Of a stretch of DNA of 64,000 nucleotides, positions 17,765 through 53,453 are shown one piece after another. This DNA is from an uncultured Chloroflexia bacterium (GTDB taxonomy: Bacteria > Chloroflexota > Limnocylindria > Limnocylindrales > CSP1-4): assembly GCA_963720715.1 (NCBI GenBank), contig CAVRGM010000003.1:385808-449807 (forward strand), in the 5' to 3' direction. The translations under genes and the position numbers were made by a program. Under the pieces are notes generated by a model. That model was not told the origin of the DNA, did no database searches, and was given only the letters and a program-made list of their open reading frames with translations. Numbering within the stretch: the first letter of the stretch is position 1; every line of letters starts with the position of its first letter.

Positions 17765-19201
17765 TCAGAGCTCCTTGACGGCCGCGGTCAGGGCGGCCAG
17801 ACCGTCCTTCGCGTCGGCGAACAGCATCCCGGTCTTGGGGTCGGAGTAGAGCTCGTTGTCGATGCCCGCATAGCCGCGCCCCATCGAGCGCTTGATGACC
17901 ACGATCGACTTGGCGTGATCGACATCGAGGATGGGCATCCCTGAAACGGGCGAACCGGGTCGTCGGGCGGCTGGGTTGGTCACGTCGTTCGCGCCGATGA
18001 CCAGGGCCACGTCACAGCGGTCGAACTCCGGGTTGATCTCCTCCATCTCCTTGAGTTGGGGGTAGGGCACGTTCGCCTCAGCCAGCAGGACGTTCATGTG
18101 TCCGGGCATCCGGCCCGCGACCGGATGGATGGCGTACTTCACGTCGACGCCGCGCGCCTCGAGCAGTTCGGCCAGTTCGCGAACCGCGTGCTGGGCCTGG
18201 GCCACGGCGAGGCCGTAACCGGGCACGATGATCACCGACTGGGCGTAAGCGAGCTGGATCGCGACGTCGTCCGCCCCGATCTCGCGGACCGTGCCGCCGC
18301 TGCCGGCCACGACACCGGACGCTTCGTCGCCACCTCCGAACCCACCGATCATGATGTTCATGACCGAGCGGTTCATGGCGTCGGCCATGAGCTTGGTGAG
18401 GATCGCCCCGGATGCACCCACGAGCGCGCCGGCGATGATCAGGACCGGGTTGCCGAGCACGAACCCTGCCATCGCGGCGGCGGTCCCGGTGAGCGAGTTC
18501 AGCAGGCTGATCACGACCGGCATATCGGCCCCACCGATCGGCAGGACCATGGTGATCCCAAAGATCAGGCCGGCCGCCACGACGATGGCAAGCAGCCCGA
18601 TGGTGGCCGTGCTGTCGAGGGTCAGTGCGCCCGCTGCGCCGAGGATGAGCGCGGCGGTGCCGAGCACGGCGATGACCGCCAGTGCGATCGTCACGACCTG
18701 GCCGCCCGGGACGTAGATCGGCTTGCCGGCGATGAGCCCCTGGAGCTTGCCGCCCGCGATCAGCGAGCCGGAGAACGTGACCGATCCGAACAGCGCCCCA
18801 AGGATGACGAAGATCGTGGTGTCGACGGGTGCGCCCGAGTTGAGCCGGACGAAATCGTCGATGGCGACCAGCGCGGCCGCCCCGCCGCCGACAGCATTGA
18901 ACAGCGACACCAGCTGCGGCATCGCGGTCATCTTCACGGTCCGGGCGGTATACAAGCCGGCCCCGCCGCCGATCACGAAGCCGATGACGATGATCGCGAG
19001 GGCCGTACCGCTCAGGCCACCTTCACGGGTGATCAGGTAGACCAGGGTCGCGACGACCGCGACGACCATCCCGGCAGCACTCAGCTGGTTGCCGCTTCGT
19101 CCGGTCGCCGGCGAATTCATCCGATGGAGACCCAGCACGAAGCACGAGGCTCCGACCAGCCAGGCCAGGTAGACGAACGTGTAGATCCACTCTTGTGACA
19201 T
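17765..19201 (-). CDS. pntB: NAD(P) transhydrogenase subunit beta
   Basis: Multi-pass membrane N-terminus plus C-terminal NADP(H)-binding domain (…GYAGIDNELYSDPKTGMLFADAKD…). Confidence 0.9.
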   Translation of the reverse strand: MSQEWIYTFVYLAWLVGASCFVLGLHRMNSPATGRSGNQLSAAGMVVAVVATLVYLITREGGLSGTALAIIVIGFVIGGGAGLYTARTVKMTAMPQLVSLFNAVGGGAAALVAIDDFVRLNSGAPVDTTIFVILGALFGSVTFSGSLIAGGKLQGLIAGKPIYVPGGQVVTIALAVIAVLGTAALILGAAGALTLDSTATIGLLAIVVAAGLIFGITMVLPIGGADMPVVISLLNSLTGTAAAMAGFVLGNPVLIIAGALVGASGAILTKLMADAMNRSVMNIMIGGFGGGDEASGVVAGSGGTVREIGADDVAIQLAYAQSVIIVPGYGLAVAQAQHAVRELAELLEARGVDVKYAIHPVAGRMPGHMNVLLAEANVPYPQLKEMEEINPEFDRCDVALVIGANDVTNPAARRPGSPVSGMPILDVDHAKSIVVIKRSMGRGYAGIDNELYSDPKTGMLFADAKDGLAALTAAVKEL

Positions 19202-19216
19202 GGACGGGCTCCTCGG

Positions 19217-19549
19217 CTAGGCCCCGGGAGCGCCGTCGGCGCCCTCGGTCGTGGCCTTCGGGGCCGTCGGCTTCTTGCGGAACATCTGGAGCATCCGGTC
19301 GGTGACGACATAGCCTCCGACCACATTCATCGCGCCGAACACCATCGCGACGAAGGCGAGCAGGTAGCTGACCGGGTTGTCCGCCTCTGCCGCGATGATC
19401 ATCGCCCCGACCAGAACGATTCCGTGGATCGAGTTCGCCCCGGACATCAACGGGGTGTGGAGGGTCGCCGGGACCTTGCTGATGACCTCGAACCCGACCA
19501 GGATCGCCAGCGTGAAGATCGCCAGCGAAGTCAGGAGTTGTTCACTCAC
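19217..19549 (-). CDS. pntAB: NAD(P) transhydrogenase subunit alpha part 2 (membrane)
   Basis: About 110 aa, three transmembrane helices, directly between the alpha-1 and beta genes. Confidence 0.85.
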   Translation of the reverse strand: MSEQLLTSLAIFTLAILVGFEVISKVPATLHTPLMSGANSIHGIVLVGAMIIAAEADNPVSYLLAFVAMVFGAMNVVGGYVVTDRMLQMFRKKPTAPKATTEGADGAPGA

Positions 19550-20709
19550 GCGGAACCTCCAGCGGCCGGAGCGGCCGGCTCGAGCAGCTTCTTGACCGGT
19601 TCGGACAACAGTTCGCCGCCGTGGCTGATGACCGTCGCCTTGGTGACCTCGTCCTCGAAGTCGAGATGCAGGGCTCCGTCCTTGGTCATCCCGAGCAACA
19701 GTGCCGAAATATTGCGGGCATAGAAGGCTGAGGCGCCGGCCGGCATCGAAGCCGGCAGGTTGTCGGGCGCGATGATCGTCACGCCATTCGACGACGCGAC
19801 CGTCTCGCCGGCCCTGCTCAGTTCGACGTTACCGCCCAGGGCGGATGCCGCCATGTCGATGATCACGGAACCCGACTTCATCTTCGCGACGGCGTCCACC
19901 GTGACCAGGACCGGAGGCTTGCGGCCCGGGACCTGGGCGGTCGTGATCACGATGTCCATGCCGCCGATGACGTCGTTCAACTCGGCCTGCTGTGACGCCC
20001 GTTCCTCATCGGTCAGCTCGCGAGCATAACCACCGCTGCCCGTCGCATCGATAGTCGTCTTGAGCTTGACGAATTGCGCGCCCAGGCTTTCGGCCTGCTC
20101 TCGGGTCTCGGGCCGCACGTCGTAGGCCTTGACTACCGCCCCGAGTCGTCGGGCGGTGCCGATGGCCTGCAGCCCGGCGACCCCGATACCCAGGATCAGC
20201 ACGTTGGCCGGCTTGGCCGTCCCGGCCGCCGTGGTCAGCAAAGGGAAGTAGCGCCCGTAGGCGTTGGCCGCGATGAGCACGGCCTTGTAGCCACCGACGT
20301 TGGCCTGCGACGAGAGGGCGTCCATCGTCTGGGCCCGCGAAAGTGTCCGTGGGATCGCATCGAGACTGACCGCGGTCACCCCGGCATCCGCGAGCGCTTT
20401 GGCCGTCGTCGGGTCGATCAACGGAGCGAGCAGACCCACGATCGCCTGGCCGCTTCGCGACAGGGCGACCTCCTCCGGCGAGGGCTTCGCGACGCGAAGG
20501 ATCACATCGGCGCCCGCGTAGAGCTCGGCGGTCGAGACGATGACCGCGCCTGCTGCCCGGTAGGCGTCGTCCGGGAACGCCGCCGCGCGGCCTGCGTCGT
20601 GTTCGACGAGGATCTCGAGCCCGGCCGCCGAAAGCTTGCCGAGCGCCTCGGGGACCAGGGCGACCCGTCGCTCTCCGGGCGCGGTCTCCTTGGCGACACC
20701 GACCTTCAT
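19546..20709 (-). CDS. pntAA: NAD(P) transhydrogenase subunit alpha part 1 (AlaDH-like NAD(H)-binding)
   Basis: AlaDH/PNT N- and C-domains. Start set at MKVGVAKE…, preceded by AAGGTGGTG at -6. Upstream in-frame ATG would add 11 aa. Confidence 0.85.
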   Translation of the reverse strand: MKVGVAKETAPGERRVALVPEALGKLSAAGLEILVEHDAGRAAAFPDDAYRAAGAVIVSTAELYAGADVILRVAKPSPEEVALSRSGQAIVGLLAPLIDPTTAKALADAGVTAVSLDAIPRTLSRAQTMDALSSQANVGGYKAVLIAANAYGRYFPLLTTAAGTAKPANVLILGIGVAGLQAIGTARRLGAVVKAYDVRPETREQAESLGAQFVKLKTTIDATGSGGYARELTDEERASQQAELNDVIGGMDIVITTAQVPGRKPPVLVTVDAVAKMKSGSVIIDMAASALGGNVELSRAGETVASSNGVTIIAPDNLPASMPAGASAFYARNISALLLGMTKDGALHLDFEDEVTKATVISHGGELLSEPVKKLLEPAAPAAGGSA

Positions 20710-20914
20710 TGGCACCACCTTGATCTGAGGTTGTTGGTCCACGGACGTGACGCGTCCGCGATGGACACCTGGGGTCCGCCGAAGGATACCTGCTGCTGAG
20801 CCCGGACGCGACCGATCCGAGGTTGCGGCTCGGGGGCGGCGCAGCCCGGCCGACCCCCGAGGCCTACGATAGGCGCGATCGCCGCCCGCCCGTCGGCGTC
20901 GAAGGAGGGTTCAG

Positions 20915-42467: not shown

Positions 42468-42469
42468 TC

Positions 42470-42958
42470 ATGACCACGCCGGCCGTCGGAGACCCTGCTC
42501 CGGACATCGCGTTGCCCGATGAAACCGGGACGATCCACCGCCTGTCCGACCAGCTCGGGCGCTGGACCATCCTGTACTTCTACCCGGCCGACGACACGCC
42601 GGGATGCACGACCGAGGCCTGTGAGTTCCGGGACCGGATCGATGTCGTCCACGAGCGCGGCGCCGACGTCTGGGGAGTGAGCCCGCAGGGTGCGGCGAGC
42701 AAGCGCGCGTTCCGCGAGAAGTTCCAGTTGCCATTCGTCCTCCTTGCCGACGAAGGGCATGCCGTCGCTGAACGGTACGGCGCCTGGGGCGAGAAACTGA
42801 ACTACGGCAAGACGACGATCGGGATGATCCGCTCGACGTTCCTGATCGACCCGGACGGTCGCGTGGCACGGGTCTGGCCGAAGGTCAAGGCCGAGGGCCA
42901 CGCCGATCGCGTCATCGCCGAGCTGGATCGCCTTCAGTCGGCTGCTCGATCCTCGTGA
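42470..42958 (+). CDS. bcp: thiol peroxidase Bcp (peroxiredoxin)
   Basis: ILYFYPADDTPGCTTEACEFRD peroxidatic Cys motif. Confidence 0.9.
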   Translation: MTTPAVGDPAPDIALPDETGTIHRLSDQLGRWTILYFYPADDTPGCTTEACEFRDRIDVVHERGADVWGVSPQGAASKRAFREKFQLPFVLLADEGHAVAERYGAWGEKLNYGKTTIGMIRSTFLIDPDGRVARVWPKVKAEGHADRVIAELDRLQSAARSS

Positions 42959-42978
42959 TCCGCTCGTGGATGCATGAA

Positions 42979-43008
42979 GCTTCGCCCGTGGGGGGAGACG
43001 GGCGAAGC
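42979..43008 (+). terminator. hairpin terminator candidate after bcp (11-bp stem GCTTCGCCCGT/ACGGGCGAAGC, loop GGGGGGAG)
   Basis: Perfect inverted repeat 20 nt after the bcp stop. Confidence 0.45.
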
Positions 43009-43046
43009 CTCGGACTCAAGCGTACGCTGCTCCAAGGGCCGGTGCA

Positions 43047-43802
43047 ATGACATCGGACGAGGTGAGCGTCCCGCACACGTGGCGACCGGAACGGTTCATG
43101 GTCATCGCCGGCCATCCGGACGACGCCGACTTCGGTCCCGCGGCGACGGCCGCTCGATGGATCGATGACGGATCGGTCGGCTGGCTGGTGTGTTGCACGA
43201 GTGGCGACCAGGGCGGCGAGGATGCCGATGCCGACCCGCTCGAACTGGCCGCGCTGCGCGAACGAGAACAGCAGGCTGCGGCGGATGTCGTCGGGTACGC
43301 CGGAGTCACGTTCCTGCATGGTCCCGATGGGGCCCTCGCCAACGATCTCGCGCTGCGGGAACAACTCGTCCGGGAGATCCGGACATTCCGCCCGGACGCC
43401 GTGCTGGCCACGGACCCTGAGACGCTGTTCTACCGTGGCGGCGGGGTCAATCACACAGACCATCGCGCGGCTGGCATGGCCGCCGTCGATGCGGTCTATC
43501 CGGCGGCCCGCAATCCGATGGCCTTTCCCTGGCTGGCTCGATCCGGCCTCGGACCGCATCGCGTTCATCGGTTGTACCTGTTCTGGTCGGACCGGAGCGA
43601 TGTCTGGATCGATGTCAGCGGAACCCTGGATCGGAAGCTCGCGGCGCTGGCGGCGCATGCCAGCCAGATCCAGGATGGGGCGGCGCTGGACGGACGGATC
43701 CGCGACTGGGCGGCCGAAGAAGGGCAGCGCATCGGGGTCGCGGCGGCTGAGGCCTTGCGCCTGGTCGTCATCGACGATGACGAGGATGAGGGGCCGGGCT
43801 GA
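43047..43802 (+). CDS. PIG-L family deacetylase (LmbE/MshB-like)
   Basis: VIAGHPDDADFG zinc-binding motif and …HTDHRAAG…. Confidence 0.85.
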   Translation: MTSDEVSVPHTWRPERFMVIAGHPDDADFGPAATAARWIDDGSVGWLVCCTSGDQGGEDADADPLELAALREREQQAAADVVGYAGVTFLHGPDGALANDLALREQLVREIRTFRPDAVLATDPETLFYRGGGVNHTDHRAAGMAAVDAVYPAARNPMAFPWLARSGLGPHRVHRLYLFWSDRSDVWIDVSGTLDRKLAALAAHASQIQDGAALDGRIRDWAAEEGQRIGVAAAEALRLVVIDDDEDEGPG

Positions 43803-45440
43803 TCAGCCTTCGGCCAGCAGCAGGGGTCGGATCCGGCCCCATTCGTTCCAGGCCTCGGCCAGCCCGTCGGCCCGTCGACCCAGCATCGTCACCATCTCGA
43901 CCAGGCTGAGGTCGCCGGCGACCCCGGCCAGGTACTCGTCGGCGGCGACGGACACCTCGCCGAACAGGCGGGCCGTGTCCTCCGCGTCGGGCCACTGGCG
44001 GATCCGCATCGGGTCGAGCCCGGCATAGCCAAGCGCCAGCGACAGGTCGCGTTGAGACGGCAAACGTTCGTCGATCCAGCCGCCGAGCCCGTCGAATTGA
44101 TAGCCGAGTGATGCCAGGGCGTGCGCGATGTCGCGGTTCTGTTCCCGCGTGAAGAGGCCCCAGAACGGATGCTCGGCCGGGAATTCGAGCGATGCCGCTT
44201 CGATCGCGTTGGCAACGATGGCCTCGACCAGGCCGGTCATCAGGAGCTGCCAGTGGCGGCGAGCGTCCCGATCCTCTCCGGCGAGCGTGGCGACCAGCGC
44301 GGTCATCGACTGGCGATCGCCGCGCAGGATCCGGAAGATGACGGGCGCCTCGCCGCTGTCGAGGGCCACGGTCAGCGTCTCGTCCTCGTCAAGTCGGGGC
44401 TGGCTGGCGGCAGCCGCGAGCGGCGGGCTGACGTCGACAACGTCCGCGTCGGCAGCCTCCTCGCAGTCCGCAACGGCCGCGCGTGCGGAAAGGCAGGCCG
44501 CATCGGCCGTCTCGGCTCCGATCCGGGCCGCGTCCGCCTCAAGACCCAGGCGGTCGAGACTGGCTCCGATCTCGGCGGCGGCTGCGTGTTCGCGGGCGGC
44601 GGTCGTGGTCGCGTCACGCGCGTCCGTATTGATCCGGTTGATCTCGTTCAGCCAATCTCGGGCCGCATCCTCCAGCGCCTCGGGCGTCCCCGCCGCCGCG
44701 ACGGCCGTCCGGAAGCCGCCCTGAGCCGCGTCCTTGGCCTGATGGATCGCCCGCGGGTCGGCGCGCCATGAAGCGGTGACCGCTGCGGCCTCGTGCTCGT
44801 CATATCGGCGCTGGGCGGCTCGAAGGGCTTCGGCCGCCGTCGCAGCCTGGGCCTTGGCGCGCGTTGCCAGCTCGCAGCGCTCATCCGCCAGTCTTCGCTG
44901 CTCGCCGCAGCGCTCGACCGCACCCGGCTGCCCCCCGGGACTCCCTCCGGTTGGTGGTTCGAGGACGGCGACGGCCGTCAACTTCCCGGCATCCCGCTCC
45001 GACCGGGCCTCCGTCGCGGGCACGGCGCGATCAAGCGCCAGCACCGTCCCCTGGTGCCCTGAGGTGACAGTGTCGCCATGCCGATCCTGATCTCGCGCGA
45101 CGGCCAGGGCGACCATCCCGTCTGCTGTGGGTACCATCGAGCTGACCGGCGTCCGCGTCTCAGACAGAACGTTCGTTCGACGATCGCCGACGCCCATCAC
45201 CGGTAGGCCGGGACCACTGCGTCGGTCTGCCGGCCCGCCTCGAGCCGGCTCTGGCCGAACCGATGCGAAAGCGTCGTCGGCGAGGGTCAGGGAGCGACGT
45301 GGGATCGCTCCGTGGGCGACCGTCACCCTGACCACGCGTGGTGACGGCGGTCGAGCGCGCATGATCTCGACGAGAGCGGCGCCGCAGACCAGACCGAGGG
45401 CGAGGCCCAGGACCAGGAAACTCCACTCGCTGACCGTCAT
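43803..45440 (-). CDS. hypothetical membrane-anchored Ala-rich coiled-coil protein with C-terminal globular domain (546 aa)
   Basis: Start placed at MTVSEWSFLVLGLALGLVCGAALVEIM (transmembrane helix). The upstream 197 codons of ORF 43803..46031 run through the 19-bp tandem repeats and are judged non-coding. Confidence 0.45.
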   Translation of the reverse strand: MTVSEWSFLVLGLALGLVCGAALVEIMRARPPSPRVVRVTVAHGAIPRRSLTLADDAFASVRPEPARGGPADRRSGPGLPVMGVGDRRTNVLSETRTPVSSMVPTADGMVALAVARDQDRHGDTVTSGHQGTVLALDRAVPATEARSERDAGKLTAVAVLEPPTGGSPGGQPGAVERCGEQRRLADERCELATRAKAQAATAAEALRAAQRRYDEHEAAAVTASWRADPRAIHQAKDAAQGGFRTAVAAAGTPEALEDAARDWLNEINRINTDARDATTTAAREHAAAAEIGASLDRLGLEADAARIGAETADAACLSARAAVADCEEAADADVVDVSPPLAAAASQPRLDEDETLTVALDSGEAPVIFRILRGDRQSMTALVATLAGEDRDARRHWQLLMTGLVEAIVANAIEAASLEFPAEHPFWGLFTREQNRDIAHALASLGYQFDGLGGWIDERLPSQRDLSLALGYAGLDPMRIRQWPDAEDTARLFGEVSVAADEYLAGVAGDLSLVEMVTMLGRRADGLAEAWNEWGRIRPLLLAEG

Positions 45441-45588
45441 CCAGTGCGCACCCCGAAGTCCGCGTCTTCCCGTTGTTCTCGGTGGCCGTCGCCATCGCAG
45501 CGTAGCTGCGACCCAGTCGAGCGTCAAGGACGTGGGGTGCAGCGGTGGCGCAGCGCGTCGAGCACCGCATCGAGGCCGGCAGCCGGCA

Positions 45589-45692
45589 GGTCGGCGATCG
45601 GCTGTCTGGTCGGCGATCGGCTGTCTGGTCGGCGATCGGCTGTCTGGTCGGCGATCGGCTGTCTGGTCGGCGATCGGCTGTCTGGTCGGCGC
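45589..45692. repeat. five perfect tandem copies of the 19-bp unit GGTCGGCGATCGGCTGTCT plus a partial sixth
   Basis: Read directly from the sequence in the 580-bp divergent intergenic region. Copies are 100% identical. Confidence 0.9.
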
Positions 45693-45732
45693 TGCTGTGA
45701 CACGCGGTTCCTGCACGAACACGCTCGCACGT

Positions 45733-45761
45733 ATTCCGACATAGACAGGATCTGTCGGAAT
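45733..45761. promoter_or_regulatory. inverted repeat ATTCCGACA-n11-TGTCGGAAT (operator-like), 40 bp right of the tandem array
   Basis: Perfect 9-bp arms seen in sequence, AT-richer than surroundings. Confidence 0.35.
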
Positions 45762-46023
45762 CGAGGTCTCGGCGTGCACGTTCATCAACGGTTCGCGTCT
45801 GACACACGCAGCCATCAGACCGCGTGCTCGACACCCGGTCGCGGATGCCGACCCGGGCCGGGGCTTCGGCCCGGCAGGCAGGAAGCTGCTGGGCCGGGCA
45901 GGGGGCCATGGCACCCGCTGGATGCACGACGCCGTGGTCCGATGGTAAATTCCGAATGGTCGGCAACGCGCCCGATCCTGTGTTCGCGCCCGAGTCCTGA
46001 GTTCAGGGAAAGGCACGCCCCGC

Positions 46024-47859
46024 TTGGTCATCGAGCAGCCTCAGGAATTCCTCGTCCAGCCGGTCGACGCATCCTGGCTTCAGTGCAACATCGAATGCCA
46101 GGAAGCCTGTCCGGTCGGGACGAACTGCCGCGGCTACCTCAACCTCGCCGCTGAAGGCCGGTTCGAGGAGGGCTACATCCTGTCGCGCGACCCGAATCCG
46201 GTCGCTGCGATGTGCTCGTACGTCTGTTCCGCGCCGTGCGAGCGAGCCTGCCGCCGAGGCGACATCGACCGGCCCTTGGCGATCCGGGCGATGAAGCGGT
46301 TCCTCGTGGAGTGGCACGAGGCCTCGGGCATCCCCGACGTCATGCCCGATATCACACCGCGGGACGAGCGAGTCGCCGTCATCGGCGCCGGACCGGCTGG
46401 CATCGCGGTTGCCCGCGAGCTGGCGACCAAGGGGTACCGGGTTACGGTCTTCGACAGCCTGCCCTATGCCGGCGGGACCATGCTGATCGGCGTGCCGGCC
46501 TTCCGCCTGCCACGGGAAGCGATCGAGATGGATGTCCGGCTCGTCGAACGACTCGGTGTGCGGTTCGTCTACGACACGACGATCGGCAAGGACATCACAT
46601 TCGAACAGCTCCAGCAGGATTTCGATGGGATCGCGATCACTGGCGGCGCGATGGACGCGGTAGCGCTCGACATCCCGGGCGCGGAGCTTGAAGGCGTCCA
46701 GTACGGCGTCGACTTCATGAAGAAGGCCAACCTGGGCCAGCCCCTCGAGGTGGGCACCGACGTCGTCGTCATCGGCGGTGGCTACACCGCGATGGACTGC
46801 TCGCGGACCAGCCTGCGGCACGGAGCGGACAACGTGTCGATCGTCTACCGGCGGACCCGGTCGGAGCTCGTGGTCGACGAGGAAGAGCTGGGCGAGACCG
46901 AACGCGAAGGCGTGCGGATGGAATTCCTGGCGAGTCCGGTCGAGGTCCTCGGCGAGGACGGCAAGGTGACCGGCGTCAAGTTCATCCGGAACCGCCTCGG
47001 TGAGCCCGACGCTTCGGGACGCCGCTCACCGGTCCCGATCGAGGGGTCGGAGTTCGTGATCAAGGCCCAGACCGTCATTCCCGCGGTCTCCCAGGCGGCC
47101 GACCTGACGATGCTCCCGATCGAGGCCAAGTTCGAGATCAACCGCGGTCGCGTCAAGGTCGACCCGGCGACGTACGCCAGCAATGTCAGAGGCGTGTTCG
47201 CGTGCGGCGACTTCGTCACCGGCCCGACGACCCTCATCGAGGCCGCCGGGCACGGCAAGAAATGCGCCTATGCCATCGATCGCTACCTGTCCGGTCGAAC
47301 CGACGTGACCGTTGCCGCGAACGTCAAGATCACCAGTTCGTGGCGCCACGACATGCCCGAGTTCTATGACGTCCTGCCTCGTCAGCACATCCCCATGGTC
47401 CCGCTCAGCGCTCGCATGCCGTCGACCGAGCCGGTCGTCAACTTCAACACGCCGGTCGAGCTGGGCTACGACGCCAACGGTGCGGTCGCCGAGTCGACTC
47501 GATGTCTGATGTGCAACTTCAACATCTGGTTCGACCCGTTCCGCTGCGTCCTGTGTGGTGCCTGCGCGGACGTCTGCCCTGAGGGCGTGATCCACATGGT
47601 CGACGTCAACCAGTTGAAGTCGGAGGGCCTCCTCCCGGAGCTCGAGGAGGCGTACGGCTGGGACAACGGCGGTGCGATGATCCTCGACGAGGAGCGGTGC
47701 ATCCGCTGCGCGCTGTGTGTCAAGCGTTGTCCGTTCGACGCCATTACGATGGAGCGGTTCGAGTTGCAGGAGATCTCGACCGACGGGCGTCTCTACAAGG
47801 AGTCGTACCGTGATGCGCAGCTGGCCGGTACCCCCGGCGTCGCAGGAGGACACCGGTGA
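46024..47859 (+). CDS. GltD-like NAD(P)H-dependent flavo-FeS oxidoreductase with C-terminal 2x[4Fe-4S] ferredoxin domain
   Basis: N-terminal Cys clusters (CNIECQEACP…CSYVCSAPCERAC), two Rossmann motifs (VAVIGAGPAGIAVA ; VVVIGGGYTAMD) and C-terminal CLMCNFN…CVLCGACADVCP … CIRCALCVKRCP. Stop overlaps the GTG start of cytochrome b6 (GTGA). Confidence 0.85.
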   Translation: MVIEQPQEFLVQPVDASWLQCNIECQEACPVGTNCRGYLNLAAEGRFEEGYILSRDPNPVAAMCSYVCSAPCERACRRGDIDRPLAIRAMKRFLVEWHEASGIPDVMPDITPRDERVAVIGAGPAGIAVARELATKGYRVTVFDSLPYAGGTMLIGVPAFRLPREAIEMDVRLVERLGVRFVYDTTIGKDITFEQLQQDFDGIAITGGAMDAVALDIPGAELEGVQYGVDFMKKANLGQPLEVGTDVVVIGGGYTAMDCSRTSLRHGADNVSIVYRRTRSELVVDEEELGETEREGVRMEFLASPVEVLGEDGKVTGVKFIRNRLGEPDASGRRSPVPIEGSEFVIKAQTVIPAVSQAADLTMLPIEAKFEINRGRVKVDPATYASNVRGVFACGDFVTGPTTLIEAAGHGKKCAYAIDRYLSGRTDVTVAANVKITSSWRHDMPEFYDVLPRQHIPMVPLSARMPSTEPVVNFNTPVELGYDANGAVAESTRCLMCNFNIWFDPFRCVLCGACADVCPEGVIHMVDVNQLKSEGLLPELEEAYGWDNGGAMILDEERCIRCALCVKRCPFDAITMERFELQEISTDGRLYKESYRDAQLAGTPGVAGGHR

Positions 47860-48584
47860 GTTTCCTCGAGCGGGTGGATCAGAGCATCCGCCGCAGCGCC
47901 GTCTGGCGCTCGCTCTTCCGCCAGCCCTACCCGCGCGACGAGCGTTCGCGCGCGTACGCGGTCATGAACAACGTCTTCCTGCACATCCATCCAGTCCGGG
48001 TTCGCCAGCACGCGGTGAAGTTCGCGTACACGTTCTGCCTTGGCGGCCTGTCCTTCTTCCTGTTCCTGGTCCTGACCGTGACCGGTGTCTACCTGATGTT
48101 CTTCTACGTGCCGTCGGCGACCCAGGCGTATACGAACATCCTGGAGATCCAGAGCCAGGTCACATTCGGCCTGCTGACCCGGAACATCCATCGGTGGGCC
48201 GCCCACCTCATGGTCTTCTTCGTGTTCCTGCACATGATGCGAGTCTTCTATCACGGCGCCTACAAGCCGCCGCGTGAATTCAACTGGGTGGTCGGTGTCG
48301 TCCTCCTGTTCCTGACGATCATGCTCAGCTTCACCGGCTACCTGCTGCCGTGGGACCAGATCGCCTACTGGGCGATCACGATCGGCACGAACATGGGTGG
48401 CTACGCGCCGCTGTTCAACACGCCGACCAAGCTCATCCTGCTGGGCGGTCTGGAGGTGGCGCAGAACACGCTCCTGCAATTCTATGTCGGTCACGTCATC
48501 TTCCTGCCCGGCATCGCTGCCACGTTCCTTGCCGTCCACTTCTGGCGGATCCGCAAGGATGGCGGGATCAGCGGCCCGCTATGA
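47856..48584 (+). CDS. cytochrome b6-type subunit (N-terminal half of cytochrome b)
   Basis: Four transmembrane helices with conserved heme-ligand His pairs (…NIHRWAAHLMVFFVFLHMMRVFY… ; …GHVIFLPGIAATFLAVHFWRIRK). AGGAGG RBS before GTG. Confidence 0.9.
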   Translation: MSFLERVDQSIRRSAVWRSLFRQPYPRDERSRAYAVMNNVFLHIHPVRVRQHAVKFAYTFCLGGLSFFLFLVLTVTGVYLMFFYVPSATQAYTNILEIQSQVTFGLLTRNIHRWAAHLMVFFVFLHMMRVFYHGAYKPPREFNWVVGVVLLFLTIMLSFTGYLLPWDQIAYWAITIGTNMGGYAPLFNTPTKLILLGGLEVAQNTLLQFYVGHVIFLPGIAATFLAVHFWRIRKDGGISGPL

Positions 48585-48701
48585 CGACCCATCGCCGCGT
48601 TGTCGCCTCCGCTGCTCGCTCACGGACCTTGGGGTGCGCTCGCTCTCTTGCTTGGCTCCGCCTTGCGCTAGGTCGCCCAAGCGGGCCGCTGGGGATCGGG
48701 G

Positions 48702-49310
48702 ATGTCTGACGTGAAGACGCCGCCCGAGACGGAGAAGCGGGTCGTCTTGCCGGTCGACCCGGCGCGCCGAACCGAGATCGACAAGCAACGGGTGCCGATG
48801 TCGGCGCGGCCCTATCGGCTACTCGCCCTCGTCAAGCAGGATGCCGTGGTCCGTGTCCAGAAGGAGCCGGACGACACGGTCATGACCTGGCCGCACCTGC
48901 TCACCATCGAGTTCCTGGCGGCCGGCGTCATGAGCATCTTCCTGTTGATGATGGGCCTGTTCGTGAACGCCCCGCTCGAGGAGTTGGCCAACGGCAACGT
49001 GACCCCTGCGGTCGCGAAGGCGCCCTGGTACTTCCTGGGCCTGCAGGAGTTGCTGGCCTACTTCCACCCAACCGTCGCCGGCGTCCTCGTGCCGACCTTC
49101 GTGCTCGTCGGGGCCGCCCTCATCCCATACATCGACCGCGAGAACATCGCGGTCGTCCGACCGTCCGAGCGGAAGACCGCAGTCATGTTGTTCACGATGT
49201 TCTGCTGCCTCGGCTTGATCCTGACCTTCGTCGGGATCTTCTTCCGAGGTCCCGGCTACACCTTCGTCATCCCGTTCATCACCAGCCCCGGTTTCCACTT
49301 CGCCCTATGA
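48702..49310 (+). CDS. cytochrome bc/b6f complex subunit IV-type (C-terminal half of cytochrome b)
   Basis: PEWY-equivalent APWYFLGLQELL motif and 3 transmembrane helices. Confidence 0.85.
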   Translation: MSDVKTPPETEKRVVLPVDPARRTEIDKQRVPMSARPYRLLALVKQDAVVRVQKEPDDTVMTWPHLLTIEFLAAGVMSIFLLMMGLFVNAPLEELANGNVTPAVAKAPWYFLGLQELLAYFHPTVAGVLVPTFVLVGAALIPYIDRENIAVVRPSERKTAVMLFTMFCCLGLILTFVGIFFRGPGYTFVIPFITSPGFHFAL

Positions 49311-49335
49311 CAGCCCTCGTAAGGATCGCGATCAC

Positions 49336-50010
49336 ATGAGTAACTACCATGTCGAACTCGTCGACAAGCCGGCCGCTCTGACCAAGGAGGCCATCAAGTC
49401 GCTGCGCAAGCAGCAGGTCCAGGGCATGTCGCGGCGTCAGTTGATGCGGACCGCGCTTGGTGCCGGGATCGGCCTGTGGACCGTGGAGGTCCTGGCCGGG
49501 ACGCTCGGTTTCGCCTGGCCGAACCTCAAGGGTGGTTTCGGCGCACCGATCTCGATCGGGGATCTCGACACGGTCAAGCTCCAGAACTCGACACTGCCGA
49601 TCGAGGAGGGGTTCCCGGCCTACTATTCCGAAGCACGGGCTTTCGTGATCCTGTACGACCCGGGACAACAGCGCTTCCTCGCCGGCGAGGATGTGAGTGG
49701 CGACGGCGAAGCGCTGAACGTGCGCGCCTTGTACCAACGCTGCCCGCACCTCGGGTGCAAGCCGAACCCATGCCTCAAGAACTTCTGGTTCGAGTGTCCC
49801 TGCCACGGCTCACGCTATGACCGGCTCGGGATCAAGGCCGCCGGGACCCAGTACGGACCCGCGCCACGGAGCATGGACCGGTTCTCGATCACGGTCGACG
49901 ACTCGGGCGTCCTGACCATCAACACCGGCAAGATCACCCTGGGACCGTTGCCGGTCGCACTCGGCCAGCCAGGGATCATCCCGCCAAGGACGCCGACCGG
50001 ATGCATCTGA
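49336..50010 (+). CDS. Rieske [2Fe-2S] iron-sulfur subunit with Tat signal
   Basis: Twin-arginine SRRQLMRTALGAGIGLW. Boxes CPHLGC … CPCHGS. Confidence 0.9.
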   Translation: MSNYHVELVDKPAALTKEAIKSLRKQQVQGMSRRQLMRTALGAGIGLWTVEVLAGTLGFAWPNLKGGFGAPISIGDLDTVKLQNSTLPIEEGFPAYYSEARAFVILYDPGQQRFLAGEDVSGDGEALNVRALYQRCPHLGCKPNPCLKNFWFECPCHGSRYDRLGIKAAGTQYGPAPRSMDRFSITVDDSGVLTINTGKITLGPLPVALGQPGIIPPRTPTGCI

Positions 50011-50017
50011 TGCGTCG

Positions 50018-51106
50018 ATGAGCGATCCGACCGGTCGCGAACCGGAAGAGCGGCTGCCAGTCCCGCGCCCGGAACCCGAGGTCCCGTCGGCGGAGCGATT
50101 CTCCTCGCCGGCTTCCACGCGCAGCGTTGAACTGTCGCCGGAACGAGCCGCCCAGGTCGTGCGCCAGTCGTCGAATGCGCGCTGGGTCGGCTTCCTTGCC
50201 GTCGTGGTCGTGATCCTGTTCATCACGGTGTATTGGTTCTACGAGCTGGCTCCGCTGGGTATCCGCGAACCGCGCCTGGATACCGAGGCCGCGAACCAGC
50301 AGGTGACATCGGTCGAGCGCGGCTACAACCTGTACGAGGCCAACTGCGCCCGCTGCCACGGTGCCAACGGTGAGGGCGGCATCGGGCCGACACTCAACCG
50401 CCAGGACAAGCTGTACGCCCACTTGTCGGTCGACTACATCAACACCATGCTCCAGGCTGGCGGTCGGTACGCCTGCGGGGATCCGAACTCGATCATGCCC
50501 ATCTGGTCCAACGAAGGCCGGCCGCCAGGCCCGCTCAACTACGCCCAGATCGATGACATCATCGCGTTCATTCGGGCCCCCAGCACGGAGACCTACACGA
50601 TCCGCGATGCGGAACTCGCCGAGCCCAAACTCGATCCCGTGACCGGTGAGGTCCAGACCTTCACCGGCTGGGTGGATCCGGACTACAAGCCGGCGCCCGG
50701 GGCGACGCCCTATCCGGCGTGCTGGAAGGACGAGTTCACGACCGCCTCGGCGGCACCATCGGGCGAACCGGCCGCGTCCGGCGAACCGGCGGCATCCGGC
50801 GAACCGGCGGCTTCCGTCGACCCGAATACGCCGACGGTCTCGGTCGTGGCCCAGAACATCGAATTCACGACGCCGGCCGTCACTGGCCCAGCTGACACGC
50901 CCTTCGTCATCGAATTCGACAACGAAGATGCCAGCGTGCCGCATGACATCCAGATCAAGGACTCGACTGGTGCGGTCGTGTTCACCGGGGATACGTTCGT
51001 GGGTGTCGAGACCAAGGCGTACGAGGTGCCGGCTCTGGCGGCCGGAGCTTACCCATTCGTGTGCACCGTGCACTCGAACATGACCGGGACGTTGACCGTC
51101 CAGTGA
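50018..51106 (+). CDS. membrane-anchored mono-heme cytochrome c fused to a C-terminal cupredoxin (blue-copper) domain
   Basis: Transmembrane helix VGFLAVVVVILFITVYWF. Heme motif CARCHG with distal Met region. (EPAASG)x3 linker. Cupredoxin ligands H…C-x2-H-x2-M (PHDIQIK … FVCTVHSNMTGTLTVQ). Confidence 0.85.
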   Translation: MSDPTGREPEERLPVPRPEPEVPSAERFSSPASTRSVELSPERAAQVVRQSSNARWVGFLAVVVVILFITVYWFYELAPLGIREPRLDTEAANQQVTSVERGYNLYEANCARCHGANGEGGIGPTLNRQDKLYAHLSVDYINTMLQAGGRYACGDPNSIMPIWSNEGRPPGPLNYAQIDDIIAFIRAPSTETYTIRDAELAEPKLDPVTGEVQTFTGWVDPDYKPAPGATPYPACWKDEFTTASAAPSGEPAASGEPAASGEPAASVDPNTPTVSVVAQNIEFTTPAVTGPADTPFVIEFDNEDASVPHDIQIKDSTGAVVFTGDTFVGVETKAYEVPALAAGAYPFVCTVHSNMTGTLTVQ

Positions 51107-51140
51107 CAGACGGCCGGCCTCGGCCGGTCGATGAGGGAGG

Positions 51141-52601
51141 ATGATGGCGCAACAGGCGCTCGGACCGGGAACCGCGGTGCCGCGACGGCGGGCGCTGTTC
51201 GGCCTGCTCGATTCCGGCGGCTGGGCGTGGGCCTCGGTCAAGGCCTTCGTCTGGCTGATCATCATCATCTTCATCCTCGGCTACCTGCCGGATCGGGCGT
51301 ATTACCTGACAGTGGGCCGGACCGTGGACCTCGGCGTCCTGGTCTGGTCGCCGATCAATCTGTGCCCGCCGTCCAACGAGGATCTTCCCTGTCCGCCGCC
51401 CGTCGGCGGGCTCGTCCCGTGGGAGACTTCACCGCCCGAGTTGGCATTGCCCGAACCGCGAACGGATGGGGCGCTCCTCCAGGTCGGCACGCAGATCTTC
51501 TACTTCGGCGGCTCGGACGGTCAGACGGCGACGTCGACCGTGTATGTCGCAACGACTGTCGGGACGGGCAGCTTCGACACATGGATGGACGGCCCACCCC
51601 TGCCCGCACCACGGGCGGATGCATCGGTCGTGTACATCGCCGGCAGCATCTACGTGATCGGTGGCCGCGACGAGACCGGGGCGCCGACGACGACCGTCTT
51701 CGTCCTCAGCCCGGACCCGCAGACGGGTCAGCTGGGCGAGTGGCGAACGGCTGATGAACTCGTCCTTCCCGAACCGCGCAGCGGCGCGGCGACCGCAGTC
51801 ACCCCCGATGGATTGCTGTTGATCGGTGGTAGCGACGCGACGGGCCCGGTGGCCACGACCTGGGCGACCAAACTCGACTCGAAGGGCGCCCTCGGCGCCT
51901 GGACCGCTGAGCAGCAGTTGAACTCACCGCAGACCGACGCGACGGCGGTCCTCGTCGGCGACTACGTCTGGGTCTACGGCGGCAGCGATGCGTCGGGTCC
52001 GGTCGCGACCGTGCAGCGCGGAGCCTTCGGTGAGAAGGCGGCCGAGGGACTCCCCGAGAATCCGAACACGGGCAAACTCGTCGAGTGGGACGTGAGCGAA
52101 GACATCAACCTGCCCGTCGCCCGGACGAATGCCGCCGGCTGGGGTGCCAACGGCGCGATCTACCAGGCCGGCGGTGACGACGGGAGCGGTCCAACGACCG
52201 CCGTCTACTGGGCGGTCCCGACATCGACCGGCGACCTGACCGAGTGGCTCCATCTCGACGTGAGCGATCTGCCAGCCCCGATCGAAGGGGCGCCGGCCGT
52301 CGTCAACGGCCCGACCGTGGCGATCGTCGGCGGGGCCGGTGCCGGAGGCACCGCGCAGGCGTCGAGCGTGCGCGCCAATACCGCGCCACTCAGTCCGTTC
52401 TTCCAGCTCGGCCTGGTCGGGGCGACCGTCCCGGGCCTGACCCTGGACGGCGAGATCGGCCAGCAGCTCGGCTACCTGAACGCCGCGACGGTGGGGGCCA
52501 TCGACTTCATCATCCTGATCCTGATCGGCGTCGCGTTCGCCCACAAGGCAGAAACCAGGGCGCTGTTCGGGCGGGTGCTGCACCGGCTTCGTCGAGACTG
52601 A
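51141..52601 (+). CDS. membrane-anchored Kelch-repeat beta-propeller protein
   Basis: GGAGG RBS. N-terminal and C-terminal transmembrane helices. About 6 Kelch-like blades (…IFYFGGSDG… / …IYVIGGRDETG… / …LLLIGGSDATG… / …VWVYGGSDASG… / …IYQAGGDDGSG…). Confidence 0.65.
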   Translation: MMAQQALGPGTAVPRRRALFGLLDSGGWAWASVKAFVWLIIIIFILGYLPDRAYYLTVGRTVDLGVLVWSPINLCPPSNEDLPCPPPVGGLVPWETSPPELALPEPRTDGALLQVGTQIFYFGGSDGQTATSTVYVATTVGTGSFDTWMDGPPLPAPRADASVVYIAGSIYVIGGRDETGAPTTTVFVLSPDPQTGQLGEWRTADELVLPEPRSGAATAVTPDGLLLIGGSDATGPVATTWATKLDSKGALGAWTAEQQLNSPQTDATAVLVGDYVWVYGGSDASGPVATVQRGAFGEKAAEGLPENPNTGKLVEWDVSEDINLPVARTNAAGWGANGAIYQAGGDDGSGPTTAVYWAVPTSTGDLTEWLHLDVSDLPAPIEGAPAVVNGPTVAIVGGAGAGGTAQASSVRANTAPLSPFFQLGLVGATVPGLTLDGEIGQQLGYLNAATVGAIDFIILILIGVAFAHKAETRALFGRVLHRLRRD

Positions 52602-52620: not shown

Positions 52621-52992
52621 TTACCCGGCCGGCAACTCGCCCTCGCCGGGTGCGATGGGGCCGCGTCGGATCGCGAGACCGGCCCGTTCCCAGGCATCCA
52701 TCCCGCCCGCGACATTGACCACATCCGTCCGCCCCGTGCTCATCAGGTACCCGGCGACGGTCGCGGATCTGCCACCGGTGTGACAGATCACGAGCAACGG
52801 TCGGTCGGGCGGGAGTTCGCCGACACGGGCCAGGAACGTCGAGGTCGGGACCAGGACCGCGCCGCTCGCCCGAACGAAGGCGAACTCGCCGGCTTCCCGG
52901 ACATCGAGCAGGATCGGACGATCGGGATCCTCGCGAAGTCGTCGGTCAGCCTCGGTGACGTCGATGGTCGGGATCGCGGGCGGCATCGTCAC
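52621..52992 (-). CDS. single-domain rhodanese (sulfurtransferase)
   Basis: Active-site loop CHTGGRS. Confidence 0.8.
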   Translation of the reverse strand: MTMPPAIPTIDVTEADRRLREDPDRPILLDVREAGEFAFVRASGAVLVPTSTFLARVGELPPDRPLLVICHTGGRSATVAGYLMSTGRTDVVNVAGGMDAWERAGLAIRRGPIAPGEGELPAG

Positions 52993-53453
52993 ACCTGGCT
53001 CCTTCGGATGTCGGGCGGGCCGAGTCTCGGTCCGTCGGGGTGGCTGAGGAGGTCCGCGAGCCGTTGATCGATGGCGACGATCAGCGCCGTCAGGTCGTGC
53101 GGCTCGGCAGCGGCCAGGATGGGGGCCGGGATCGATCCCGGCCAGCCGCTCTCCTTGGCGCCGACGAGAAGCCGTCGCGCGCCCTCGAGATTGCGGGCGA
53201 TGCCGGCGGGGTTGCCGCGCGTGCCGTGAACGTATGCCGCCGCGACCTTGATCAGGCCCTGAAGCCAGGCTCGCTCGACCGGGTCGGCCGAGCCCATCCA
53301 GGCAGGTTCGAGGTCCTCGTGGGCATCGAAGAAGTCGCCACGCTCGTACGCTGCGAGGCCGACCGCGATGGCCGTGGCGCGAGCCTCGACGGGGAGTGGG
53401 CGATACGCCTTGGCTCGGCCGTCACGTCCGATGATGACGGACGGTGTCGTCAT
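52989..53453 (-). CDS. DUF309-family protein
   Basis: Characteristic FFDAHEDLEPAW…GLIKVAAAY motif. Confidence 0.55.
   Translation of the reverse strand: MTTPSVIIGRDGRAKAYRPLPVEARATAIAVGLAAYERGDFFDAHEDLEPAWMGSADPVERAWLQGLIKVAAAYVHGTRGNPAGIARNLEGARRLLVGAKESGWPGSIPAPILAAAEPHDLTALIVAIDQRLADLLSHPDGPRLGPPDIRRSQV

Follow-up and report, generated by a model that had tools for sequence, protein, structure and literature searches.

Background

The APWY clade of cytochrome b spans delta-Proteobacteria, Chloroflexi, Nitrospirales, Planctomycetes and Actinobacteria such as Ilumatobacter, and none of its complexes has been characterized (Kao & Hunte 2014, PMC4122944). A passage in the comparative genomics of Dibrova et al. 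(2017, PMC5600118) notes that cytochrome b of subfamily G co-occurs with NAD(P)-binding iron-sulfur (FeS) proteins. Here, we analyze a six-gene operon at positions 46024-52601 of a 64,000-nucleotide stretch of contig CAVRGM010000003.1 (GenBank assembly GCA_963720715.1, hereafter the window, to which all unprefixed coordinates refer). It encodes a flavo-iron-sulfur protein, cytochrome b6, subunit IV, a Rieske protein, a cytochrome c-cupredoxin fusion and a Kelch protein. We read the operon as the respiratory complex III of Limnocylindrales, a b6-type complex of the APWY clade to which one module is added on either face of the membrane, and in which NADPH would be the favored input on the cytoplasmic side (n-side). 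We assign this reading a probability of about 0.45.

Among described systems, the closest are two Rieske/cytochrome b complexes of the anammox planctomycete Kuenenia stuttgartiensis, encoded by Kuste4569-4574 and Kustd1480-1485 (Kartal 2013; de Almeida 2016; PMC12954380). In these complexes, as in the window operon, cytochrome b is split, of the b6 type and equipped with heme cn, and it is joined by a Rieske protein and a subunit IV-like protein. The operons also encode a cytoplasmic NAD(P)-FAD-FeS subunit whose relatives are NfnABC (9bp5) and FwdF (5t5i). The NAD(P) reductase comigrates with the Rieske/cytochrome b complex, and the reductase Kuste4570, whose structural relatives are 9bp5 and 5t5i, was modelled on the n-side of the b6-type dimer (PMC12954380). 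An extra heme b, with His43 as a ligand, is predicted between two cytochrome b histidines and an arginine of the reductase, and the role of the reductase subunit is still debated (PMC12954380).

A related and long-standing dispute concerns whether heme cn of b6-type complexes takes electrons from the cytoplasmic or stromal side (PMC7908018). In this context, both an entry of electrons through heme cn from the n-side and an FNR-dependent NADPH-to-quinone activity of spinach b6f have been discussed (PMC7908018, sections 3.2, 3.6.5 and 4.3).

Results

Six open reading frames (ORFs), all on the plus strand, fill positions 46024-52601. We took them as true coding frames because their GC content at third codon positions is 0.79-0.91, against 68% GC for the window. 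The operon and its internal features are as follows.

46024..47859, plus strand: GltD/NfnB-like NAD(P)H flavo-iron-sulfur protein, 611 amino acids (aa), TTG start (Pfam, NCBIfam)
46078..46326, plus strand: N-terminal Fer4_20 domain of the flavoprotein, with eight Cys (21, 25, 29, 35, 64, 68, 72, 76)
46369..47256, plus strand: Pyr_redox_2 domain of the flavoprotein, FAD and NAD(P)H binding predicted (Pfam)
47503..47856, plus strand: C-terminal module of the flavoprotein, with a CxxC pair, two CxxCxxCxxxCP motifs (dicluster ferredoxin, FwdF-like) and a tail ending G-x-A-x-G-x-R
47844..47859, plus strand: flavoprotein/b6 junction, with an AGGAGGA Shine-Dalgarno sequence, a 5-nt spacer and a GTG overlapping the TGA
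47856..48584, plus strand: cytochrome b6, 242 aa, four transmembrane (TM) helices (Cytochrome_B, 2.6e-42)
48702..49310, plus strand: subunit IV, 202 aa, three predicted TM helices (Pfam Cytochrom_B_C/petD)
49336..50010, plus strand: Rieske [2Fe-2S] protein exported by twin-arginine translocation (SRRQLMR twin-arginine motif, CPHLGC...CPCHGSRY)
50018..51106, plus strand: membrane-anchored monoheme cytochrome c with a predicted C-terminal type-1 copper cupredoxin (Cytochrom_C and Cupredoxin_1)
50757..50824, plus strand: 18-nt tandem repeat, 3.8 copies, encoding a Pro/Ala/Ser/Gly/Glu tether between the heme and copper domains
51141..52601, plus strand: Kelch beta-propeller protein with an N-terminal and a C-terminal TM helix (Pfam Kelch repeats, propeller predicted outside)

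The initial annotation, made from the letters of the sequence, had given the same six genes, coordinates and domains and the GTGA overlap, and profile-HMM annotation together with the sequence bore it out in every particular checked. At the junction, AGGAGGA (47844-47850) is followed by cacc and GGTGA, so that the b6 GTG (47856-47858) overlaps the flavoprotein TGA (47857-47859). The gaps after b6 are 117 (b6/subunit IV), 25, 7 and 34 nt in gene order. The 117-nt spacer was considered as a conserved element and ruled out by its length in relatives, which varies from ~0 to 120 nt. A promoter/terminator scan returned a sole terminator-like match, which is weak and lies inside the cytochrome c gene.

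Where named, the closest homologs come from Candidatus Limnocylindrales, and the nearest genome loci are Chloroflexota/Limnocylindria metagenome-assembled genomes with b6 identity of up to 98%. Judged by these relatives, the host is a Limnocylindrales bacterium (Chloroflexota). The actinobacterial frame in which the operon had initially been placed does not hold, as its close homologs are Candidatus Limnocylindrales or Chloroflexota. Limnocylindria are common in soil and fresh water.

To place the operon among its relatives, a b6 alignment of 50%-identity representatives was used to scan one genome per species, giving 80 loci onto which the window proteins were mapped. The window b6 can be aligned over its full length with b6 of spinach and cyanobacteria (E 3e-48). 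Its heme b ligands, H112/H126 and H213/H228, are 14 and 15 residues apart, which is the b6 spacing, and are invariant in the 80 loci. The same is true of the CxGG motif, here CLGG, that contains the predicted heme cn ligand Cys61. F229, I232 and R233 are equivalent to F203, I206 and R207 of PetB at positions invariant across loci, and H43, H45 and H52 are conserved n-side histidines. In subunit IV the Qo motif is APWY where PetD has PEWY, and KAPWY occurs in 79 of 80 related subunit IV sequences, the window included. The Rieske ligands are likewise invariant across loci, as are Ser159 and Tyr161, a pair that raises the redox potential. The best solved relatives of the Rieske protein are Kuste4569 (9rk4) and Kustd1480 (9rk3) of Kuenenia.

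These features point to a b6f/b6c-type Rieske/cytochrome b core with a four-helix b6, a CxGG pocket and a separate three-helix subunit IV. No operon product matched cytochrome f in Pfam, NCBIfam or structure-relative searches; the fifth gene instead encodes a class I monoheme cytochrome c with a cupredoxin. The core resembles b6f with bound FNR (PMC7908018) in the b6/subunit IV fold, the heme cn Cys and the pocket equivalents of F203/I206/R207, whereas the cytochrome f, chlorophyll and small subunits of chloroplast b6f have no counterpart encoded in the operon. The subunit IV of Kuenenia has five helices, unlike the window protein, in which a hydropathy scan found three hydrophobic segments in 202 aa.

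We would assign the core to the APWY clade/subfamily G on the basis of the APWY motif and of the NCBIfam model ExtP, which b6 reached at 291.5 bits (cutoff 290). It shares with that group, in which Geobacter ExtOPQ is included, the APWY Qo motif, a short cytochrome b with CxGG and the taxonomic spread. The ExtP match also prompted us to consider a Geobacter-type Ext (selenite/tellurite) system. This candidate was rejected because the partners in Geobacter ExtOPQ are multiheme cytochromes and a flavoprotein is lacking, whereas the window operon has one. The actinobacterial QcrCAB complex does not match: the QcrA, QcrB and QcrC models scored 36, 112 and 28 bits on the window proteins, far below the NCBIfam cutoffs of 275, 500 and 200. 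In that complex the genes are ordered qcrCAB, cytochrome b (QcrB) is unsplit and without heme cn, and an n-side FeS subunit is lacking, all unlike the window operon. The two are alike in that the c subunit brings a second redox domain of its own, able to replace a soluble carrier.

The flavoprotein sets the operon apart from a plain b6-type complex. The eight Cys of its Fer4_20 domain are sufficient for two [4Fe-4S] clusters, and the whole protein has four predicted [4Fe-4S] sites. The second Rossmann motif of Pyr_redox_2, GGGYTAMDCSRT, aligns with GGGNTAMDAART of 9bov. Neither a TM segment nor a signal peptide was found in a hydrophobicity and signal check, and the protein should therefore be cytoplasmic (n-side). 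Its best solved relatives are the NfnB-like modules 9bov/9bp5, 9n5u and 8oh5 (E ~1e-106), and that of its tail is FwdF (5t5i). Together with the Rieske matches to 9rk4/9rk3, the reductase relatives 9bp5/5t5i agree with the initial annotation, which had named anammox Rieske/cytochrome b complexes as the closest analogs. The 120 best homologs of the flavoprotein are 87-94% identical to it and mostly 611 aa long.

The possibility that the first gene is an ordinary gltD was examined and rejected, in line with the initial annotation. The protein has the Fer4_20 and FAD/NADPH fold of GltD and NfnB and scores 220-290 bits against solved GltD and NfnB chains. It nevertheless falls below every gltD cutoff of NCBIfam (TIGR01317, 205 against 448; TIGR01318, 262 against 483), and it carries an extra C-terminal dicluster ferredoxin and tail. 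GltD and NfnB have GltB or NfnA as a partner, whereas the window flavoprotein has neither; the neighbors of its gene are a hypothetical gene and cytochrome b6. PRK12771 and PRK12814 (NCBIfam) match it over its full length, yet below cutoff.

Linkage of the flavoprotein gene to b6 proved to be a constant feature of Limnocylindria. It lies immediately 5' of b6 in all 25 Limnocylindria loci, full-length in 23 and interrupted by the contig end in two, and remains there in five loci of a deep clade in which flavoprotein identity falls to 52-54%. In 22 of these loci, the flavoprotein stop and an in-frame b6 start share four nucleotides (NTGA); by chance, the right frame and base would be expected in roughly one lineage in five. 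Hence, the coupling that the initial annotation had proposed from the GTGA overlap, and the linkage for which it had suggested a synteny search, both extend across the class.

Acidimicrobiia and related Actinomycetota have a smaller gene at this place. In ~45 loci, a protein of 137-138 aa with two [4Fe-4S] motifs is encoded 10-60 nt 5' of b6. It aligns with flavoprotein residues ~500-611, the homologous C-terminal ~110-150 residues, and the alignment takes in both the insertion between the cluster motifs and the tail ending G-x-A-x-G-x-R. The nearest solved relatives of this small protein are FwdF/FwdG-type wire ferredoxins and NuoI. Because the stand-alone protein matches the end of the flavoprotein, the alignment indicates that what this b6 lineage has conserved as a companion is the dicluster ferredoxin module, which in Limnocylindria is fused to an NADPH module of the NfnB/GltD type. 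Nine of the 80 loci, from Ktedonobacteria, Thermomicrobiales and a few others, have upstream sequence and no FeS partner gene in it.

The Acidimicrobiia operon runs in the order 138-aa dicluster ferredoxin, b6, subunit IV, Rieske and diheme cytochrome c (loci L026-L081 in our numbering, e.g., L040:9443-17843). In 32 loci it directly adjoins nuoA-D, forming a respiratory super-cluster. As a side observation, one Ilumatobacteraceae genome (L027:7089-10732) has a second b6 paralog that stands alone: a 903-aa ORF precedes it, and genes for subunit IV and the Rieske protein are lacking downstream.

The three states of the partner gene allowed us to ask which residues of the core vary with it. Two n-side histidines do so: His52 of b6 (48009-48011), nine residues ahead of the heme cn cysteine, and His65 of subunit IV (48894-48896). 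Both are His in all 71 partner-bearing operons. Among the informative partner-less operons, His52 is replaced by Q, Y or T in 7 of 9 and His65 by S or D in 5 of 8. His65 stands directly after a conserved Trp-Pro, where the WPN of PetD has Asn, a residue that a section of Dibrova et al. (PMC5600118) places in the heme cn propionate network. In contrast to the two histidines, the heme cn pocket itself (C61, G63, G64, F67, F229, I/V232, R233 and K234) is equally conserved in partner-bearing and partner-less relatives. The pattern fits an interface or an extra cofactor site beside heme cn, for which His52 and His65 would be the candidate residues.

On the outer side, the fifth gene product has a cytochrome c site formed by CARCH (110-114) and Met160 and a copper site formed by His309, Cys349, His352 and Met355. 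The CxxCH and all five of these ligands are invariant in 121 homologs, as had been anticipated for the cupredoxin ligands. Cys153 and Cys235 are likewise invariant and probably form a disulfide. The linker between the two domains, made of flexible SGEPAA repeats, is variable and gapped among homologs. AlphaFold2 modelled the copper domain with a local confidence score (pLDDT) above 90 and the cytochrome c domain with ~40 (low confidence), and we therefore used the copper domain alone. In fold comparisons this domain comes closest to auracyanin A, a Roseiflexus auracyanin and amicyanin, with which it shares the His/Cys/His/Met ligands and an amicyanin-like C-x2-H-x2-M spacing. From ligands and model, the domain is predicted to be a type-1 copper cupredoxin. 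Auracyanin is a separate lipoprotein, unlike this copper domain, which is covalently tethered to the cytochrome c of a Rieske/b complex. In Chloroflexus, auracyanin takes electrons from Alternative Complex III.

The fusion was initially presented as a peculiarity of the operon, yet it recurs across Chloroflexota in the same clade. A heme-plus-cupredoxin build is also encoded by the fourth gene of operons from Ktedonobacteraceae, Thermomicrobiales-like bacteria and other Chloroflexota. Products with one CxxCH and one or two C-terminal cupredoxins are found at L029:12203-13234, L033:6141-7400, L067:11545-13575 and L076:12177-13166; in the ORF at L031:12308-13297 the copper domain alone was seen, and in Dictyobacter alpinus at least the copper domain is present. 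The deep Limnocylindria clade has a monoheme cytochrome c only, and Acidimicrobiia have a diheme cytochrome c. The distribution over these loci makes the fusion of cytochrome c and cupredoxin a trait that this cytochrome b clade shows throughout Chloroflexota. By analogy, we suggest that the tethered copper domain does in Chloroflexota what the second heme does in the actinobacterial diheme cytochrome c, serving as an integral carrier toward the terminal oxidase. Kuenenia differs on this side, with hexa- or octaheme cytochromes c plus a HAO-like protein, against a single CxxCH and a blue-copper domain in the window.

The Kelch gene follows the cytochrome c-cupredoxin gene by 9-34 nt, in Limnocylindrales operons only. 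The propeller was modelled confidently, and a fold search returned generic six-blade Kelch domains only. Cys75 and Cys84 are invariant, as is His468 within the C-terminal TM helix, and residues ~411-448 form a strongly conserved hydrophobic segment ahead of that helix.

The neighborhood of the operon and the rest of the window add the following genes.

52621-52992, minus strand: rhodanese, a convergent neighbor downstream of the operon
52989-53453, minus strand: DUF309 gene, a convergent neighbor downstream of the operon
17765-19201, minus strand: pntB, proton-translocating NAD(P) transhydrogenase
19546-20742, minus strand: pntA, proton-translocating NAD(P) transhydrogenase

In many Limnocylindrales loci, rhodanese and DUF309 genes likewise converge on the 3' end of the operon, and their products are only candidates for membership in the complex. 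The Geobacter ext cluster, with a related ExtOPQ core, also has a rhodanese-like gene (ExtH), which may be a coincidence. Since PntAB is encoded in the window, the cell already has an NADH/NADPH exchanger linked to the proton-motive force.

Upstream, a ~570-nt divergent intergenic region contains a perfect 19-bp tandem repeat of GGTCGGCGATCGGCTGTCT (45589-45691; 5.4 copies, 100% matches), 330-430 nt 5' of the operon start. The repeat occurs once in the window and has no counterpart 5' of the related operons; probably it is a variable element of the promoter/leader region that is specific to the strain. The stretch 42468-46031 on the minus strand shows a weak codon-position signal and holds a long ORF of up to 742 aa. 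This low-complexity hypothetical protein has no Pfam match, and it has a TM helix and an Ala/Glu/Arg-rich region that is probably coiled-coil. A similar unannotated 533-aa gene stands at the matching place in locus L001. We also considered rRNA or other RNA as an explanation of the weakly coding 42.5-46 kb, which was rejected as Rfam gave three tRNAs only. At 1269-1345 on the plus strand, ARAGORN called a tRNA-Ile with anticodon TAT. In bacteria, AUA is usually read by a lysidine-modified CAU tRNA.

Discussion

The architecture of this operon is already known in kind, and complexes of this sort with an NAD(P)-FeS subunit have been described in anammox bacteria. The initial description of an undescribed bc-complex variant was therefore too strong, given the APWY clade and the anammox reductase, although we found no description in the open-access literature of the Limnocylindria operon itself, of the ferredoxin-only form of Acidimicrobiia or of the fusion relationship between them. 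What would be new, from the comparison of loci, is the conservation of the flavoprotein and of its overlap with b6 in Limnocylindria, the homology of the small ferredoxin to its C-terminus, the recurrent cytochrome c-cupredoxin fusion and the histidines that track the partner.

We favor a mechanism in which the C-terminal dicluster-ferredoxin module and Arg-ending tail of the flavoprotein dock on the n-side face of b6/subunit IV, beside heme cn, with His52 and His65 at the docking place. Menaquinol would be oxidized at Qo, and one electron would pass from the Rieske cluster through heme c and the tethered copper to the terminal oxidase. On the n-side, electrons would run from NADPH through FAD and a chain of four FeS clusters to hemes cn/bn and a quinone at Qi. 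The complex would thus combine the activities of an NADPH:quinone reductase and a quinol:cupredoxin oxidoreductase, and the debated input of FNR/ferredoxin into b6f would here be hard-wired. For b6f and FNR, too, the idea is that an NADPH flavoprotein supplies heme cn with electrons from the n-side (PMC7908018). However, FNR has a different fold, lacks an FeS wire and is bound loosely and substoichiometrically, whereas the flavoprotein studied here is GltD/NfnB-like, operon-encoded and predicted to hold four clusters.

The least certain step of this mechanism is the direction of n-side electron flow. Three considerations led us to favor NADPH input. Established redox potentials make electron transfer from NADPH to menaquinone downhill. 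Moreover, the heme cn pocket is conserved to the same extent in relatives that have no partner and must therefore rely on a normal Q cycle, which argues for a working Qi site that would capture electrons. NADPH input would also agree with the long-debated proposal that FNR serves heme cn of b6f as an n-side point of entry.

Several points weigh against our reading. For Limnocylindria, the physical association of the flavoprotein with the complex is a prediction from gene linkage. The covariation of the histidines spans only two to four independent lineages, with locus L076 as an exception. The use of menaquinone is an assumption from the phylum. With PntAB already interconverting NADH and NADPH, a complex III that burns NADPH looks wasteful. 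Finally, the Ser/Tyr pair of the Rieske protein predicts a high potential as in Kuenenia, where the asymmetry has been taken as an argument for the opposite direction, NAD(P)+ reduction.

This last point leads to the main rival, quinol-driven NADP+ reduction after the model of Kartal for anammox bacteria, which we consider possible though less probable than NADPH input. Menaquinol oxidation at Qo would be bifurcated: the high-potential electron, passing through Rieske, heme c and copper to O2, would pull the other through bL, bH/cn and the FeS chain up to FAD, yielding NADPH. The subunit set matches that of the Kuenenia complexes for which the model was proposed, and NfnB-type modules physiologically also work toward NADPH. 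In Kuenenia, Rieske potentials of +303 and +335 mV together with menaquinone were read as enabling a very low-potential b chain (PMC12954380), and both potential-raising residues, Ser159 and Tyr161, are present here. However, the same Ser/Tyr pair is found in partner-less relatives and in ferredoxin-only Acidimicrobiia, and hence is not specific to complexes with a flavoprotein. The conserved heme cn/Qi pocket is a further obstacle, as a working Qi would short-circuit the uphill path. Kuenenia is an anaerobe, whereas the window host belongs to an aerobic, heterotrophic Chloroflexota lineage with no obvious need of reverse electron flow and with PntAB to supply NADPH. The transhydrogenase weakens the need for NADP+ reduction and the economy of NADPH input about equally.

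It is unlikely that the flavoprotein is co-transcribed with complex III, under shared regulation, without being a subunit of it. It would then act as a soluble NADPH:acceptor oxidoreductase, with ferredoxin, polysulfide or a similar acceptor. GltD-ferredoxin fusions are indeed widespread as modules of soluble enzymes, as the full-length matches to PRK12771 and PRK12814 illustrate, and homologs are labeled 'formate dehydrogenase beta subunit' in their source annotations. Yet no candidate gene for a catalytic partner was found in the operon or its neighborhood, and the overlap with b6 is conserved over a deep divergence. The ferredoxin module alone holds the same position in another phylum, and the Kuenenia homologs comigrate with their complex.

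Equally improbable is a redox valve or sensor that drains or poises heme bn/cn against semiquinone and reactive oxygen species, or reduces a soluble ferredoxin/thiol system at low flux: the minimal Acidimicrobiia form, a dicluster ferredoxin devoid of a substrate site, and the conserved rhodanese neighbor would suit it, but a four-cluster wire and an intact NADPH/FAD site at 87-94% identity in many genomes suggest a catalytic electron path, and the sensing output is purely conjectural.

Conclusions

Beyond this operon, we tentatively propose, with rather less confidence than in NADPH input itself, a general feature of the APWY b6-type complexes of abundant aerobic Terrabacteria (Limnocylindria and Acidimicrobiia). 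They may possess a dedicated n-side FeS subunit wired to heme cn via lineage-specific histidines, fused in Limnocylindria to an NADPH flavoprotein, such that complex III would exchange electrons directly with the NADP(H) pool. If true, the complex would either have an externally fed Qi site, as in Mitchell's original 'donor d' Q cycle, and so model in nature, in hard-wired form, the disputed FNR-b6f pathway, or be a quinol-bifurcating NADP+ reductase in an aerobe. Reduced to a single heme c, a single copper and a single flavoprotein, the operon is a stripped-down natural case and a simpler aerobic relative of the anammox complexes. It also belongs to a natural series that runs from no partner (Ktedonobacteria, e.g., the cultured Dictyobacter) through ferredoxin only (Acidimicrobiia, including the cultured Ilumatobacter) to ferredoxin plus NADPH flavoprotein. 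This series makes the role of the n-side module experimentally tractable and could settle what n-side modules do.

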